Positions 3 to 49,301 are shown, counted from the stretch's first letter. The stretch: DNA of 64,000 nt from Candidatus Parcubacteria bacterium (GCA_027450205.1 DAIDJL010000004.1:75932-139931), one strand, 5' to 3'. Numbers and translations are program-made. The notes: generated by a model from the letters alone, not told the origin.

Positions 3-629
3 TTGACCGAGGCGCTCACGCACCGGTCGTACCTGAACGAATACCCTCGCTGGCCGCTTCCGCACAACGAGCGGCTGGAATATCTTGGCGACGCGGTCCT
101 CGAACTTCTCGTTTCCGAGGAGCTTTTTAAGAAATTTCCGTCGGAGCCGGAGGGGCAGCTTACCGTCTTCCGCGCGGCGCTCGTGAACTATCAGATATTG
201 GCAAAAGTGGCCGAGCGGATCGGCATGCAGAAATTCATCCTGATGTCGCGCGGCGAAAAGAAGGACACCGGCAAGGCGCGGGAGGTCATTCTGGCGAACG
301 CGATGGAAGCGCTGATCGGCGCGATCTATCTGGATCAGGGAATAGAAAAAATGCGGCCATTCGTCCATCAGTTCGTCATGGCCAATCTGGACGAGGTATT
401 GAAGAACAAGACGTATCGCGATGCCAAGAGTGAGCTGCAGGAAGTGATCCAGGAAAAATTGAAGCTCACGCCGACGTATCGGACGATCGAAGAGACGGGC
501 CCGGCGCACAAGCGCGTCTTTACCATGGGCGTCTATTATGGCGACAAATTGATCGCAAACGGCAGTGGTCCGTCAAAACAGGAAGCGGAGCTCGAGGCAG
601 CGAAGAACGCGCTCAAGAAACATAAGTAG
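3..629 (+). CDS. rnc: Ribonuclease III (5' end truncated by window edge)
   Basis: ERLEYLGDAVLEL RNase III signature, C-terminal dsRBD-like tail (GSGPSKQEAELEAAKNAL); ORF open to window start. Confidence 0.85.
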   Translation: MTEALTHRSYLNEYPRWPLPHNERLEYLGDAVLELLVSEELFKKFPSEPEGQLTVFRAALVNYQILAKVAERIGMQKFILMSRGEKKDTGKAREVILANAMEALIGAIYLDQGIEKMRPFVHQFVMANLDEVLKNKTYRDAKSELQEVIQEKLKLTPTYRTIEETGPAHKRVFTMGVYYGDKLIANGSGPSKQEAELEAAKNALKKHK

Positions 630-631
630 TC

Positions 632-2953
632 ATGTCATCTTCTGAATCCCATTTTCTCAAGCGGCTCGAACTGAACGGGTTCAAATCCTTTGCGGGGAAG
701 ACCGTACTGGAATTTCCGGCGGGAATCGTGGCGGTCGTGGGGCCGAACGGTTCCGGTAAGTCGAACATCGTGGATGCCCTGCGGTGGCTTTTAGGTGAGC
801 GCGACGCGAAGAACCTGCGTGGCGCCAGGGTGGAAGATCTGATCTTTGCCGGCACCCAGAAGCGCGCTCGCGTCGGTATGGCGCAGGCGAGCCTTTATTT
901 CGAGAATAAGAACAAATTTTTTCCGGTGGACTTCGAAGAGGTGGTCGTATCGCGCCAGATCTCGCGCGACGGCGCGAGCAAATATTATCTGAACAAGTCG
1001 GAGATCCTTTTGCGCGACCTCATTGATTTTTTTGCCAAAGCGCGGCTGGGAAGCAAGGGGCTGATCATCATCGGCCAGGGCGACAGCGATCTTTTTATCC
1101 GTTCCACGCCGCTTGAGCGCCGCGAGATGATAGAGGAAATTTTGGGCCTGCGCGAATATCAGATCAAGAAAGCCGATGCCGAGCGGAGATTAAAGAATTC
1201 TAAAATAAATCTTGACAAAGTAACCGCGCTCATTGAAGAGATCGAGCCGCATTTGCGTTCGCTCAAGCGTCAGACCGGCCGTTGGGAACGCCGTGGCGCG
1301 CTGGAAGAAGAGCTGCGTGCGCTTGAAAACGCTTTTTTCGGCTCGCAGCTTCACGAGCTTGGTGACAAGAGCGCGCAGGTGGACGGGCGCATGGCGATGC
1401 ACGCTGCAGAGTACGGGAAGCTGGAAAAGGAAAAGAAAGCGGCGGAAACGCGCCAGGCGGCCATTGAAGAGAGTCAGCCGGAGGAGCGTAAACGTCTCGC
1501 AAAAATAAAAGAGGAGACGGCCGCGCTTATGGACGCGCGCAGCAGGCTGCAAAAGGACGTCGGCCGCATCGAGGCGCAGATAGAGATGGCCAAGCGTTCC
1601 GGCGCCGCGGGGGGAGGCGGTTCGCGCGGCAGCGCCGATCGTTTGGCGGAACACTTCATTGACGTTTTGGAAAAGATCAAAGCCGAGCTTGAGGCGGTGC
1701 TGAACGAGGAACCGCTTGCGGTACAGGCAGCAATAGAGACCGTGCTTGAGGAGATCGGGTTTGCGTTGGAAGAAAAAGACGAAGCGCCGCGCGCCGAAAG
1801 CGTAAAAGAGGGCGCCGTGCCGGATTCACTGCGTCGCGAGTTCGAATCGGCGGCGCATGACCTCGCTGAGATGGAAAAGAACATCTCGTCCTTGCGCGCG
1901 AAAGAGAAAGACCTTGAATCCAGCCAGGAAGATTTTTATTCCACATTCAAAGGCGCGGTTGCCGATGTTCAGCAGGCGCAAGGCAGGCTTGATGCGTGGG
2001 AAAAGACCAATCGCGAATTGTTGCTCGAAAAAGAGCGCATCGATCTCCGCCGTGAGGAAGTGTTGCACCAGATCGACCAGGCCGGCCGCCGTGCGGAGGA
2101 GTTCCGTGCAGATATGAATGAGGGAATGTCGCTTCAGGATGCCATCTCTGCGACCGCCGCCAGTGGTCTATCAGGTTTTGGCGGCAGTCTGCAGGATATG
2201 GAACGCCGCATTTTCCGTCTGCGCGGCGATCTGGCCAGCATCGGCGAAGTGGATCACGCGCTCATGAAGGAAGCAGAGGACACCGCCAAGCGCCATGAAT
2301 TTTTACTAAAAGAATCGGAAGACCTTAATAAGGCGGTGGCGGACCTTGGCGCGCTCATGCATGAGCTGAACGAGAAGATAAAGACCGAGTTCGATAGATC
2401 GCTCCACAAGATCAACGACGAATTCGCAAAATTTTTTGCGCTCATGTTTGACGGCGGTTCGGCAAAGCTAAAAGTGCTGAAACCAAAAGGGGAGCGAACC
2501 GCCGACGAGGACGAAGAAGAGGAGGGTGAAGATGCCGCGGGAGGCGCGGCAGCCGAAGAGGCTGAGCCGACCGAGGATGAGCTTTATCAGGAGAAGAACG
2601 GCGGCGTGGAAATCGAGATAAAATTGCCGCGCAAGAAAACGACGTCGCTTGATATGCTATCCGGCGGCGAACGGTCCCTCGTCGGCATCGCCGCGCTCTT
2701 CGCGATGGTGTCCGTCAGCCCGCCGCCGTTCCTTGTGCTTGACGAGATCGATGCGCCGCTCGACGAGCGCAATGCCCGCCGTTTTGGCACCATGCTCAAG
2801 GACTTTTCCAAGCGCACGCAGTTCATCGTCGTCACGCATAATCGCGCCACCATGGAAGCCGCCAATATTCTCTACGGCGTGACGCTCGCCGAGGACGGCA
2901 GTTCGAAAGTGGTGTCGCTCAAGCTGGAGCCGGAAGAAATTGCTACAAAATAG
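632..2953 (+). CDS. smc: SMC-family chromosome segregation ATPase (short, 773 aa)
   Basis: N-terminal Walker A GPNGSGKSN, long Glu/Lys/Arg-rich coiled coil, C-terminal LSGGERSL signature and LVLDEIDAPLD Walker B/D-loop. Confidence 0.85.
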   Translation: MSSSESHFLKRLELNGFKSFAGKTVLEFPAGIVAVVGPNGSGKSNIVDALRWLLGERDAKNLRGARVEDLIFAGTQKRARVGMAQASLYFENKNKFFPVDFEEVVVSRQISRDGASKYYLNKSEILLRDLIDFFAKARLGSKGLIIIGQGDSDLFIRSTPLERREMIEEILGLREYQIKKADAERRLKNSKINLDKVTALIEEIEPHLRSLKRQTGRWERRGALEEELRALENAFFGSQLHELGDKSAQVDGRMAMHAAEYGKLEKEKKAAETRQAAIEESQPEERKRLAKIKEETAALMDARSRLQKDVGRIEAQIEMAKRSGAAGGGGSRGSADRLAEHFIDVLEKIKAELEAVLNEEPLAVQAAIETVLEEIGFALEEKDEAPRAESVKEGAVPDSLRREFESAAHDLAEMEKNISSLRAKEKDLESSQEDFYSTFKGAVADVQQAQGRLDAWEKTNRELLLEKERIDLRREEVLHQIDQAGRRAEEFRADMNEGMSLQDAISATAASGLSGFGGSLQDMERRIFRLRGDLASIGEVDHALMKEAEDTAKRHEFLLKESEDLNKAVADLGALMHELNEKIKTEFDRSLHKINDEFAKFFALMFDGGSAKLKVLKPKGERTADEDEEEEGEDAAGGAAAEEAEPTEDELYQEKNGGVEIEIKLPRKKTTSLDMLSGGERSLVGIAALFAMVSVSPPPFLVLDEIDAPLDERNARRFGTMLKDFSKRTQFIVVTHNRATMEAANILYGVTLAEDGSSKVVSLKLEPEEIATK

Positions 2954-2962
2954 TTTTATCAG

Positions 2963-3011
2963 TGGTGGACCCGGGGAGAATCGAACTCCCGCCTCAGCAA
3001 TGCGAATGCCG
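2963..3011 (-). other. Displaced 3' half of tRNA-Ala(CGC), anticodon arm through encoded CCA, with canonical TTCGATT T-loop
   Basis: reverse complement reads CGGCATTCGCATTGCTGAGGCGGGAGTTCGATTCTCCCCGGGTCCACCA; identical to the intact copy's 3' half except T-loop U55 and CCA. Confidence 0.6.
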
Positions 3012-3015
3012 ACCA

Positions 3016-3148
3016 ACGGTTTTGTTGCGGCTTACATTGTTGTGGACCCGGGGAGAATCGGACTCCCGCCTCAGCAATGCGAATGCCGCGTTATACCACT
3101 TAACTACGGGCCCAAAATTGGTCTCATAGTAAGCCGCAACAAAACCGT
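3016..3148. repeat. Perfect 20-bp inverted repeat (3016-3035 acggttttgttgcggcttac / 3129-3148 gtaagccgcaacaaaaccgt) bracketing the intact tRNA-Ala copy
   Basis: direct reading; arms are exact reverse complements. Confidence 0.85.
3041..3113 (-). tRNA. tRNA-Ala (anticodon CGC); G3:U70 identity pair, discriminator A, 7-nt D-loop; T-loop reads TCCGATT (C at position 55)
   Basis: manual cloverleaf fold of reverse complement GGGCCCGTAGTTAAGTGGTATAACGCGGCATTCGCATTGCTGAGGCGGGAGTCCGATTCTCCCCGGGTCCACA. Confidence 0.7.
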
Positions 3149-3182
3149 ATTAATCTGTTAATGTGCGCCTCTTGGGCGCAAC

Positions 3183-3200
3183 CCACTTAACTACGGGCCC
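3183..3200 (-). other. Displaced 18-nt 5' fragment of tRNA-Ala (acceptor 5' strand + D-stem/loop), followed on the minus strand by a GCGCC-N5-GGCGC hairpin (3165-3179)
   Basis: exact repeat of positions 1-18 of the intact copy. Confidence 0.6.
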
Positions 3201-3283
3201 TTATTACTGACTGATTATAAAGAAATTAAGAGGAATTTCAAGCTGCCGCATGTAAGCAATAGAGGTTTGCTATCATTAAATGA

Positions 3284-3610
3284 ATGGGAAGCAACCTGAT
3301 TTTGCCGGAGAATCCTACCTTGCGTGATCTGCAATCGTACGTCGCCGCGATGGTCAAAGAGCGGGGATTCGAGAAAGAGACCGTACCGGAGATCTTTATG
3401 CTGCTTATGGAAGAGTGCGGCGAGATGGCGAAGGCGGCGAGGAAGAGCCAGAACATTCACACCGACAAAAATTCGGAAAAATTCCATCTTGATCACGAGG
3501 CGGTGGATGTTCTCGTGTACCTGCTCGATATTTGTAACCATTTTAATATCGATCTCGAAAAAGCGTTCAGAGAAAAGGAGGAGATCAATAAGAAAAGAAG
3601 ATGGGAATAA
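3284..3610 (+). CDS. MazG-like nucleoside triphosphate pyrophosphohydrolase (small all-alpha NTP-PPase)
   Basis: EECGEMAKAARK ... EAVDVLVYLLDICNHFNIDLEKAF pattern typical of MazG/NTP-PPase domain. Confidence 0.55.
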   Translation: MGSNLILPENPTLRDLQSYVAAMVKERGFEKETVPEIFMLLMEECGEMAKAARKSQNIHTDKNSEKFHLDHEAVDVLVYLLDICNHFNIDLEKAFREKEEINKKRRWE

Positions 3611-5500: not shown

Positions 5501-5529
5501 TTGACCTTTCGCGTCCATTTTGTATAATG
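5501..5529 (+). promoter_or_regulatory. Sigma70-type promoter TTGACC-17-TATAAT; the -10 box ends 6 nt before the rpsP ATG (leaderless transcript predicted)
   Basis: consensus hexamers with 17-nt spacer. Confidence 0.6.
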
Positions 5530-5535
5530 GAACCC

Positions 5536-5913
5536 ATGTTGGCCATTAAATTACAACGCATCGGAAAGAAGCATCAGCCGAGCTATCGCGTGGTTGTTGC
5601 GGAAAAACGCTCAAAGATGGCGGCTCCGCCGGTGGAGGATCTTGGTTCGTATGATCCGCGCACCAAGGCGACGACCGTCAATAAGGAGCGCGTTTTGCAC
5701 TGGGTAAAGATGGGGGCGCAGCCGACCGTCACTGCGCATAATCTTTTAATAAAAGGCGGGGCGATCACCGGAGCACCTCGTGCGGTAAAAATGCCGAAGG
5801 CGGTTGCCAAGCCGATAGCGGAGGAAAAAGCAGGGGCGCCTGCAGCGGAAGGGGCGGTTGTCGCGAAGGAAGTGTCCGTGGCAGAAGCAGCTCCGGAAGC
5901 CGCTGCGGGATAG
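5536..5913 (+). CDS. rpsP: 30S ribosomal protein S16 with Ala/Lys-rich C-terminal extension
   Basis: MLAIKLQRIGKKHQPSYRVVVAEKRSK ... GSYDP; start set at second ATG downstream of the -10 box (ORF track begins 5359). Confidence 0.85.
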   Translation: MLAIKLQRIGKKHQPSYRVVVAEKRSKMAAPPVEDLGSYDPRTKATTVNKERVLHWVKMGAQPTVTAHNLLIKGGAITGAPRAVKMPKAVAKPIAEEKAGAPAAEGAVVAKEVSVAEAAPEAAAG

Positions 5914-5935
5914 TTAACCGCGCCGCCGGCATCGT

Positions 5936-5964
5936 TTGACATATAACTTAATATACCGTATAAT
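5936..5964 (+). promoter_or_regulatory. Sigma70-type promoter TTGACA-17-TATAAT upstream of khpA
   Basis: consensus hexamers. Confidence 0.55.
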
Positions 5965-6039
5965 TCTATCATTCAATACTGTTTTCATGGCACGGTCATC
6001 GAAATGTAACGAAAAGGTCGCAAGATACACAGAACTTCA

Positions 6040-45014: not shown

Positions 45015-45189
45015 GGACCTCGTTGTATCGAGCTGCCCCTTCACAATTGAAATGGTAAGATAACCAAAAGAGAGAGTTTTTTAGTTGTCCCAATTTATTC
45101 TTTTTGGCAACGTTAAGAAGTAATCAAATGTTGCAACAATAAAATTAGGATCAACGTCCAAAGTTTTTGAGACTTTGGACGATATCTTT

Positions 45190-46740
<1,551 letters not shown>

Positions 46741-46835
46741 ATTAAACTACTATTTGGATAAATAGTAACAGTCGAACTTTCTTCTCTTTGGCCGGCGATC
46801 GATCGCAGGCGAAAGCGAGGGAGGTAATTGGGACA

Positions 46836-48979: not shown

Positions 48980-49060
48980 GCGCGGGTGGCGAAATGGCAG
49001 ACGCACTACCTTGAGGTGGTAGCGCCGAAAGGCGTGGAGGTTCGACTCCTCTCCCGCGCA
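48980..49060 (+). tRNA. tRNA-Leu (anticodon GAG), class II with long variable arm; no encoded CCA
   Basis: manual fold GCGCGGG-TG-GCGAAATGGCAGACGC-A-CTACC-TTGAGGT-GGTAG-CGCCGAAAGGCGT-GGAGG-TTCGACT-CCTCT-CCCGCGC-A. Confidence 0.75.
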
Positions 49061-49301
49061 CAAAATAAAAAGCTACAGCGGTTTCTCAAAAATCATCCAG
49101 GCATGCCTCCCAGATAATTTTGCGCTGTAGCTATCTCCTCCCCAGGGCTTCGAGGTACTGAATTGATAGGCAATCAACGGCGATGGATCGCCAGAGGGCG
49201 GAAAAGGAGGTTGGCCACCCCGATTCTCATCGTTCTTTATCATCACGAAGTCCTAAATGTTTTATACTCCAGAGTTCGAACATCGTCCAATCTGGCGTAC
49301 T

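Follow-up and report, generated by a model that had tools for sequence, protein, structure and literature searches.

The window is the whole 64,000-nt stretch of DNA analysed here, and comes from a tiny-genome bacterium, placed in the Patescibacteria (Paceibacterota/Minisyncoccia) by proteins homologous to those encoded beside the locus. It holds a tRNA-Ala(CGC) locus that is read on the minus strand and lies in a 330-bp gap between smc and a MazG-like gene. The smc gene (632..2953, plus strand) is convergent with the tRNA locus and served to find orthologous loci; the MazG-like gene (3284-3610, plus strand) forms the other border of the gap. The RNase III gene (rnc; 3..629, plus strand; Pfam), cut by the window start, lies outside the locus and provides context, and rnc-smc synteny is seen in relatives. 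Pfam searches of ten neighbouring ORFs gave housekeeping genes throughout (rnc, smc, mazG-like, an MscS-like channel, a racemase, rpsP, efp, mnmA, an aminoacyl-tRNA synthetase and mreBC). None of them encodes an integrase, transposase or invertase, and no element body was found within about 12 kb.

The locus opens with a promoter-like site, TTGAAA-16 nt-TATAAT (3214..3241, minus strand; 11/12 consensus matches), 13 nt upstream of the first tRNA piece. It is the sole such site returned by a promoter scan of 2850-3350, and it aligns as the orthologue of the promoter of relatives' simple tRNA-Ala genes. The scan gave no support to a candidate internal promoter at the spacer TATGAG/TATAAT.

Next comes the 5′ piece of an outer tRNA-Ala(CGC) (GGGCCCGTAGTTAAGTGG; 3183..3200, minus strand; tRNA positions 1-19). 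It spans the acceptor 5′ strand, the D-stem 5′ strand and the D-loop to G18 G19, and it occupies the same post-promoter place as the whole gene in the relatives L052, L066, L068 and L071. Insert 1, 19 nt in the outer D-loop (3164..3182, minus strand), was delimited by sequence, fold and comparison and consists of GU followed by a 6-bp hairpin, UGCGCC-CAAGA-GGCGCA, at 3180-3164 on the minus strand. After the hairpin lies CATTAAC A (3156..3163, minus strand), the remnant of the outer D-loop and D-stem 3′ strand together with position 26. CATTAAC (3163-3157), the surviving outer D-stem 3′ strand and a detail absent from the initial annotation of this DNA, corresponds to CATAAC, the D-loop/D-stem 3′ strand of the plain gene in L066 (CATAAC G with position 26).

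Insert 2 is a 144-nt cassette between outer positions 26 and 27 (3012..3155, minus strand), delimited by sequence, fold and comparison with a second complex locus, L064. On the minus strand it runs through GATTAAT (3155-3149), the left arm of an inverted repeat (IR-L, ACGGTTTTGTTGCGGCTTAC; 3129..3148), a 15-nt spacer (3128-3114), a complete inner tRNA-Ala(CGC) of 71 nt (3043..3113), a second spacer CAACAAT (3042-3036), the right arm (IR-R, GTAAGCCGCAACAAAACCGT; 3016..3035) and TGGT (3015-3012). IR-L and IR-R are the 5′ and 3′ strands of a 20-bp stem; the inverted repeat bounds 133 bp, and the segment between its arms is 93 bp. The outer tRNA then resumes with its 3′ piece (2963..3011, minus strand; positions 27-76), which comprises the anticodon arm, the variable loop, a T-arm with TTCGATT, the acceptor 3′ strand and an encoded CCA, and which ends 9 nt from the smc stop codon.

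The elements given in the initial annotation were all confirmed base for base at their minus-strand coordinates, including the 20/20 complementarity of the arms and the tRNA origin of the fragments. The 5′ piece is an exact 18-nt repeat of the start of the inner tRNA (3113-3096), and the 3′ piece is 96% identical to the inner copy over 50 nt. This 3′ direct repeat, about 47-50 nt long and with 2 differing bases between copies, runs from position 27 to the tRNA 3′ end, as is typical of attachment-site scars. The inner tRNA is separated from its partial copies by 31 bp and 69 bp. It carries G3:U70 and is the sole tRNA called at the locus by ARAGORN (tRNA-Ala(cgc)) and Rfam (RF00005, 61.7 bits vs a gathering score of 29). 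The initial annotation had named a lone conventional gene call, combined with a lack of support for a tRNA origin of the fragments, as grounds for refutation; one gene is indeed called, but the fragments are still exact repeats and the locus has a homologue in L064. The T-loop of the inner copy is TCCGATT, with C55 instead of the canonical U54-U55-C56, and its 3′ flank, CAA, is aligned with CCA in L064, a single base change.

Both the direct repeats and the inverted repeat are unique in the 64-kb window and are not found in shuffled controls (two inverted-repeat matches occurred in 0/100 shuffles). Neither arm nor hairpin has a further copy in the window at up to 3 mismatches, nor was one found in 75 additional sequences that we retrieved, and the earlier concern that the arm might be a ubiquitous repeat can be set aside for this window. 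Comparable arms were absent around the window's tRNA-Leu and around 50 tRNAs in the retrieved loci, so that arms of this kind are not a general processing device of these bacteria. At a permissive threshold Rfam assigned neither the hairpin nor the arms to a family, and the same was true of the inserts in the loci L001 and L011.

When the 5′ piece, CATTAACA and the 3′ piece are joined in silico, the product is a flawless 75-nt tRNA-Ala(CGC) cloverleaf with G3:U70, a canonical T-loop and CCA. At both positions where the outer and inner copies differ, C20 and T55, the rebuilt gene equals the single gene of L066. Because removal of the inserts rebuilds a perfect tRNA, we infer that insertions split a single resident gene into the outer pieces, and that these are neither a deletion scar nor two unrelated scars. 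At minimum energy the region as a whole is predicted to fold into two nested cloverleaves (-104.7 kcal/mol, z = -5.5), with the 20-bp stem branching off the outer tRNA and enclosing the inner one.

Orthologous loci were found via SMC, many of the relatives having 65-88% SMC identity. The initial annotation expected single clean tRNA-Ala genes beside smc in relatives, and plain tRNA-Ala(CGC) genes are present there in five SMC lineages (L052/L053/L058/L060, L066/L067, L068, L069 and L071/L073; eight contigs). They lie on the opposite strand to smc, directly after it or one gene off. Some relatives (L055, L056, L061, L065) have no tRNA at the smc-adjacent place. The full sample comprises two complete complex loci, one doubtful partial locus (L054) and the plain-gene contigs, and the complex loci are scattered among plain ones on the SMC tree. 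As a synteny anchor the MazG-like neighbour gave nothing: none of 51 loci was syntenic, and the closest, at 85% identity, lacks a tRNA and is preceded by gyrB.

The second complete complex locus, L064, was located by its hairpin pattern in a metagenome search; the pattern was narrow and returned 3 matches, 2 of which were chance matches in coding DNA. L064 is a 26-kb JGI metagenome contig from an independent project, with SMC 85.8% identical to that of the window. Its order is that of the window: promoter, 5′ piece (GGGCCGATAGTAAAGTGG), hairpin (CGCGCC-CAAGG-GGCGCG), IR-L (GCAGTTTCGTTCCGGCTTAC), tRNA, IR-R (GTAAGCCGGAACGAAACTGC) and 3′ piece. Between and beyond the arms come a spacer, a complete tRNA with CCA, CAAT, IR-R, TGGG, and then tRNA positions 27 to about 58. 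The outer exons, which join into a complete tRNA in the window, include a truncated 3′ exon in L064: it ends after the T-loop, 14 nt short of the stop of a 159-aa VOC-family gene that sits between it and smc. Also in L064, the outer D-stem remnant is unrecognisable, C6 is changed and the acceptor strand is mutated; the stem and the inner tRNA have stayed intact. Beside this locus, too, neither an integrase nor an element body was found.

The doubtful locus L054 has a 5′ piece, a hairpin and a diverged IR-L homologue ahead of a complete gene, with neither IR-R nor 3′ piece. Its 4888 bp as far as the tRNA 5′ end match L052 at 100%, and the contig breaks off 155 nt beyond that point. Very recent recombination or a chimeric assembly may account for this, and the parts that the contig lacks were given no weight. 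We had considered it as proof of within-species polymorphism and dropped it, since the contig is possibly chimeric and ends soon past the part identical to L052. Its apparently compensatory D-stem changes were likewise rejected as a sign of a functional outer tRNA because L064 lacks that pairing, and the stretch is better read as a decayed TATTACGC. Neither the 3′ half nor the arm had a match in viral contigs, and BLAST of the locus found only T-arm similarity to Achromobacter phage tRNAs among phages and nothing among plasmids.

In both species all of the arm positions (20/20) form Watson-Crick pairs. Between window and L064, 4 of the 20 positions changed on both arms and none on one arm alone, which has a probability of about 2.5e-6 under independent change in this single pairwise comparison. 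The closing pair of the hairpin covaries too, being U-A in the window and C-G in L064 and L054. Since a related species shares the layout and its two arms have changed in step, the structure is, on sequence comparison, real and maintained rather than a random scar. All 40 stem pairs are Watson-Crick with zero G-U, so that homogenisation of the arms at the DNA level (by template switching or recombination) fits equally with selection on an RNA. The cassette outside the tRNA is identical between window and L064 at 80/101 positions (~79%) vs 57% at 297 four-fold smc sites, an excess with P = 3e-6 (3e-5 counting one arm). All cassette parts share this level of ~79%, arms and rest alike.

The relatives also bear on which copy works. 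The initial annotation held this to be unclear, as the displaced half looks more canonical, and the comparison largely removes that doubt. TCCGATT is the T-loop of the sole tRNA-Ala(CGC) at the locus in L052, L068, L069 and L071, and it occurs also in the inner copy of L064; because single-copy genes of relatives carry it, C55 is a lineage trait and not a defect. An encoded CCA is missing in the plain genes of L066, L068, L069 and L071 and in the window's tRNA-Leu(GAG). Since C55 and the lack of CCA are normal in the clade and the outer copy is truncated in L064, it appears largely settled that the inner copy is the conserved working gene and that the outer 3′ piece with CCA is a relic.

The bases that distinguish the two copies carry some history. 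In L064 the outer 5′ piece carries A7, as in the sister lineage L071, against G7:C66 in the inner copy; the window's outer copy has C20 and T55, as in L066, and its inner copy differs there. In both genomes, then, the outer copy looks resident and the inner one foreign, a contrast for which each genome offers 1-2 diagnostic bases. In the window the outer gene shows no damage, yet the cassettes are ~21% diverged, which suggests an old cassette family that arrived recently in the window genome. These data, two full examples and a few diagnostic bases, favour a cassette that passed between related species, or that is under selection, rather than neutral vertical junk. Mobility is read from the distribution alone, with no transposase, integrase, target-site duplication or second copy seen in the window.

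The explanation that we consider best, with a probability of roughly one half, is that a non-coding cassette with a replacement tRNA in a maintained stem was inserted into the resident gene. Its observed basis is the anatomy, the homology in a second species, the covariation of the arms, the excess of conservation and the outer copy's resident-like bases. The resident tRNA-Ala(CGC) by smc would have been interrupted by the 19-nt hairpin in its D-loop and by the 144-nt cassette between positions 26 and 27. The cassette would have brought its own complete tRNA-Ala(CGC), bracketed by the 20-bp inverted repeat, and the outer pieces would be leftovers of the resident gene, intact here and decaying in L064. 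Counting against this explanation, the two insertion points (after G19 and after position 26) recur together, and one simple insertion is insufficient to account for them.

The insertion history, the role of the stem in RNA, its cleavage by RNase III and the mode of spread make up the inferred part of this explanation. Transcription would start at the resident promoter and give a precursor that takes in the inner tRNA with its two arms as well as the 5′ piece and the hairpin. The arms would pair in this precursor to form a long stem around the inner tRNA, keeping its two ends next to each other and away from the duplicate strands, which might otherwise compete in acceptor-stem pairing. The stem is probably an RNase III or folding helix: the two-turn duplex is a putative substrate of RNase III, whose gene lies two genes away, and RNase P, 3′ trimming and CCA addition would complete the inner tRNA. 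Several features agree with an RNase III processing stem, namely an uninterrupted duplex of ~20 bp in both the minimum-energy and the consensus folds, an encoded rnc and a single upstream promoter. In silico, the inner acceptor stem and cloverleaf form with probability 0.99 in the wild type; scrambling one arm lowers this to 0.20 and scrambling both arms to 0.85, which amounts to a modest effect. We rejected the stem as a thermodynamic need for correct folding on the last of these values. The cassette family would be older than its presence here, and would move between related species or be lost repeatedly; candidate agents of its spread are recombination via the conserved tRNA flanks and an enzyme acting in trans.

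Two families of known structures resemble such a cassette with a stem. Correia elements of Neisseria are bacterial MITEs that form RNase III-cleaved hairpins in transcripts. They share with the present locus a non-coding insert of ~130-170 bp, long perfect inverted repeats and, if transcribed, a plausible RNase III stem. Here, in contrast, there is no target-site duplication and no other copy in 64 kb, the arms are subterminal, and a functional tRNA is carried inside the same tRNA gene. The flanks of the cassette are GATTAAT/TGGT in the window and GATCAAAC/TGGG in L064, with no direct repeat in either. The MITE-like element mentioned in the initial annotation thus finds agreement in the inverted repeats, the small size and the non-coding content, but not in target-site duplication or in further copies within the window. 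The RNase III stems and intervening sequences of rRNA are the other family: a long leader-trailer helix round a stable RNA, or an inserted stem-loop, with patchy distribution, compensatory stem changes and an encoded RNase III. They differ in that the present stem lies around and in a tRNA, and its cleavage is a prediction by analogy.

The alternative that survives best, though we think it improbable, is a local ancestral rearrangement. Partial duplications and a template switch would have built the locus, which would be functionless, vertically inherited and repeatedly lost, with its arms corrected at the DNA level. The direct repeats of 18 and about 47 nt would permit clean deletion to a simple gene, and an all-Watson-Crick stem is expected from such correction. 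Junk would also be tolerable in this gene, as tRNA-Ala(CGC) is dispensable in many bacteria and E. coli has none. However, at least five independent losses would be needed on the SMC tree, and neutral junk should be near saturation, like the four-fold sites at 57%, whereas the cassette is at ~79%. Nor does local origin account for the lineage-discordant bases of outer and inner copies, or for an outer gene fully intact while the cassette lineages are 21% diverged.

Somewhat less credible is a pair of independent att-type scars, one from an element that attached at the stretch between the anticodon stem and the 3′ end (the 49-nt repeat) and one from an element at the 5′ end (the 18-nt repeat), whose element bodies were deleted to leave CIME-like remnants of 31 and 69 bp. 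Fragments of tRNA genes left by integrative elements are widespread in prokaryotes (10.1101/2022.07.05.498093), and that work includes comparable 44-bp repeats. The 3′ repeat covers exactly the stretch from position 27 to the 3′ end, a size and place typical of integrase-made fragments, and other Patescibacteria loci show a tRNA, a ~145-nt insert and then a 3′-end repeat. A 5′ fragment beside a recombinase element has been described in an archaeon (PMC3293823): in that population study, a 5′ tRNA fragment lies upstream of an intact gene, population heterogeneity was attributed to a mobile element, and a mobile-element route to fragmented tRNA genes was proposed (Caldiarchaeum tRNA-Thr). The present locus shares with integrative-element scars a complete tRNA beside a direct repeat of its 3′ part from the anticodon stem, and incoming DNA that supplies the sequence keeping a working tRNA. 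It differs in having no integrase or body within about 12 kb, 31 and 69 bp between copies, a 5′ fragment as well, a whole tRNA carried, and a covarying 20-bp inverted repeat at the junctions. Unrelated scars do not predict mutually complementary, covarying arms, and the retained D-stem remnant makes the outer pieces a continuous gene with inserts, not overlapping att repeats. Of the two readings in the initial annotation, an att-like scar or a small inverted-repeat element, the second therefore comes closer on the covarying arms of L064, and the remnant and the in silico rebuild speak against attL and attR as independent scars.

It is very unlikely that both copies function, with one transcript yielding two alanine tRNAs, the inner being cut out and the outer serving as a working two-piece tRNA. 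The inserts of the interrupted outer tRNA would be tolerated or removed. Release of the inner copy by the tRNA-end enzymes (RNase P/Z), by RNase III cutting the stem, or by both would leave the outer tRNA as two pieces that the 20-bp helix and its acceptor stem hold together. The outer pieces in the window show no disabling change over 75 nt and have both an encoded CCA and a canonical T-loop, the region is predicted to fold into two nested cloverleaves, and the hairpin falls in a naturally length-variable part of the D-loop. AlaRS also needs little beyond the G3:U70 acceptor helix. Against a functional outer tRNA stands its state in L064, truncated and with D-stem remnant and acceptor strand mutated. 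No bulge-helix-bulge (3-nt bulge, 4-bp helix, 3-nt bulge) was found at the junctions ..TAACA|GATTAAT-stem and stem-TGGT|CGGCA, and we know of no precedent for a working two-piece tRNA in bacteria. The disrupted tRNAs of archaea (Nanoarchaeum split, multi-intron and Caldiarchaeum genes) are alike in having exons separated by an insert and complementary stretches, one following the 5′ piece and one preceding the 3′ piece, that would bring the pieces together. They differ from the present case, in which the host is bacterial, a bulge-helix-bulge is lacking, the insert holds a second tRNA that is complete, conservation of the outer exons does not extend to the second species and there is no recombinase gene. 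If true, the production of two tRNAs would be a bacterial counterpart of archaeal split tRNAs and fragmented rRNAs, and the cassette would be a selfish, homing-like insert that survives through its spare copy of the interrupted gene.

We give slightly less credence still to an inverton, in which the arms would be invertase sites that flip the 93-bp segment and switch tRNA-Ala(CGC) on and off, recombination homogenising the arms. Perfect 20-bp inverted repeats do surround a short segment that depends on an outside promoter, and the arms change together between species. Known invertons likewise have short perfect inverted repeats flanking a segment of ~100 bp whose expression depends on its orientation relative to an outside promoter. 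Here, however, no invertase or other recombinase lies nearby, no flipped copy was seen (the tRNA is in the same 'on' orientation in window and L064), the cargo is a tRNA and not a promoter, and the split outer gene is left unexplained. An assembly artefact, whether strain variants joined one after another or a fold-back of k-mer size, is scarcely credible: the window is from a metagenome-assembled genome, its two 3′ copies differ by 2 bases as alleles might, and L054 breaks off soon after its identity with L052, but allele stitching cannot make arms and a hairpin unrelated to tRNA sequence, and the locus is not an artefact because the same architecture, ~20% diverged, lies internal to the independent 26-kb contig L064.

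Partial tRNA genes tend to be written off as footprints left by integrating phages or islands, and the present footprint is unlike those. A complete spare tRNA lies in a maintained 20-bp helix inside the gene that it replaces, no mobility gene lies nearby, and the arrangement recurs in a second species. We found no description in the literature of a tRNA nested in a tRNA or of inverted-repeat-bracketed bacterial tRNAs. As far as sequence can tell, disruption of a tRNA gene by insertion is an already known type of event, and this arrangement of it is new. Should the helix act in RNA, it would be a rare example of a processing or insulating stem of the RNase III type round one bacterial tRNA, and this in a lineage whose RNA-processing machinery is reduced. 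Should it act in DNA, it would point to an unrecognised route for moving or switching tRNA genes in Patescibacteria. The locus also offers a bacterial example for the debate on the origin of split and intron-bearing tRNA genes. For annotation, it is the copy with the 'non-canonical' C55 that appears to be the real gene, and the canonical-looking piece with CCA the relic.

The T-loop of tRNA-Ala(CGC) carries C at position 55 (TCCGATT) in the single-copy genes of four related lineages, on contigs L052 (4815-4888), L068 (4673-4744), L069 (4582-4653) and L071 (5553-5624). The same C55 loop is found in the inner copies of the two nested loci, that of the window (3043-3113) and that of the related contig L064 (5355-5428). 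The usual T55 is present in the single tRNA-Ala(CGC) gene of L066, another related contig, and in the outer piece of the window. Since U55, the site of pseudouridine 55, is to our knowledge nearly universal in tRNA, the occurrence of C55 across a lineage is unusual in itself.

In several relatives with a plain tRNA-Ala(CGC) gene, the leader that separates the promoter from the tRNA 5′ end contains a short hairpin rich in G+C. Hairpin regions lie on the minus strand at 4538-4570 in L066, 4745-4780 in L068 (for example, GGGGCCGCACUGCGGCUCC), 5625-5660 in L071 and 4977-5000 in L054, a partial example of the nested layout. The hairpin sequence varies from lineage to lineage, and neither L052 nor the window has such a hairpin ahead of its tRNA-Ala(CGC).

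L054 (1-5043) and L052, contigs of different samples, are 100% identical over 4888 bp, as far as the tRNA gene's 5′ end, beyond which the two are wholly different; L054 stops 155 nt further on. This break reflects either recombination that took place very recently and precisely at the tRNA gene, or contig chimerism, with the assembly joined through the shared tRNA.

In L064 a VOC/glyoxalase-like gene (5502-5981; 159 aa) lies between the tRNA locus and smc, the only contig in which this gene was found in that interval. L064 has lost the final third of its outer 3′ tRNA piece, either through the arrival of the VOC gene or through a linked deletion.

Small inserts accompanied by partial tRNA repeats were also seen at two Patescibacteria loci unrelated to that of the window. 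At L001 (2726-2976), ~145 nt of inserted sequence separate tRNA-Leu(TAG) from a downstream direct repeat of its last 19-21 nt, and tRNA-Arg(TCT) at L011 (3340-3580) is arranged likewise. Both inserts contain an inverted partial copy of the T-arm (ggagactcgaac and tttgaacctacg), and they show no sequence similarity to each other or to the window cassette, nor does either match an Rfam family. Partial tRNA repeats with small inserts may be frequent across the phylum. At L024, a tRNA-Ser(ACT) gene (543-630) with an odd anticodon call, part of a five-gene tRNA-Ser cluster, has a 17-nt repeat of its own 3′ end 121 nt downstream.

The rRNA genes of the window organism appear to be unlinked. No match to 23S rRNA was found across the whole 64-kb window, which holds a full-length bacterial 16S rRNA gene at 45189-46748. 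The next RNA gene, 2.2 kb downstream of the 16S rRNA gene, is tRNA-Leu(GAG) (48980-49061), which has a leader of 85 nt and a promoter-like TTGAAA...TATAAT of its own.
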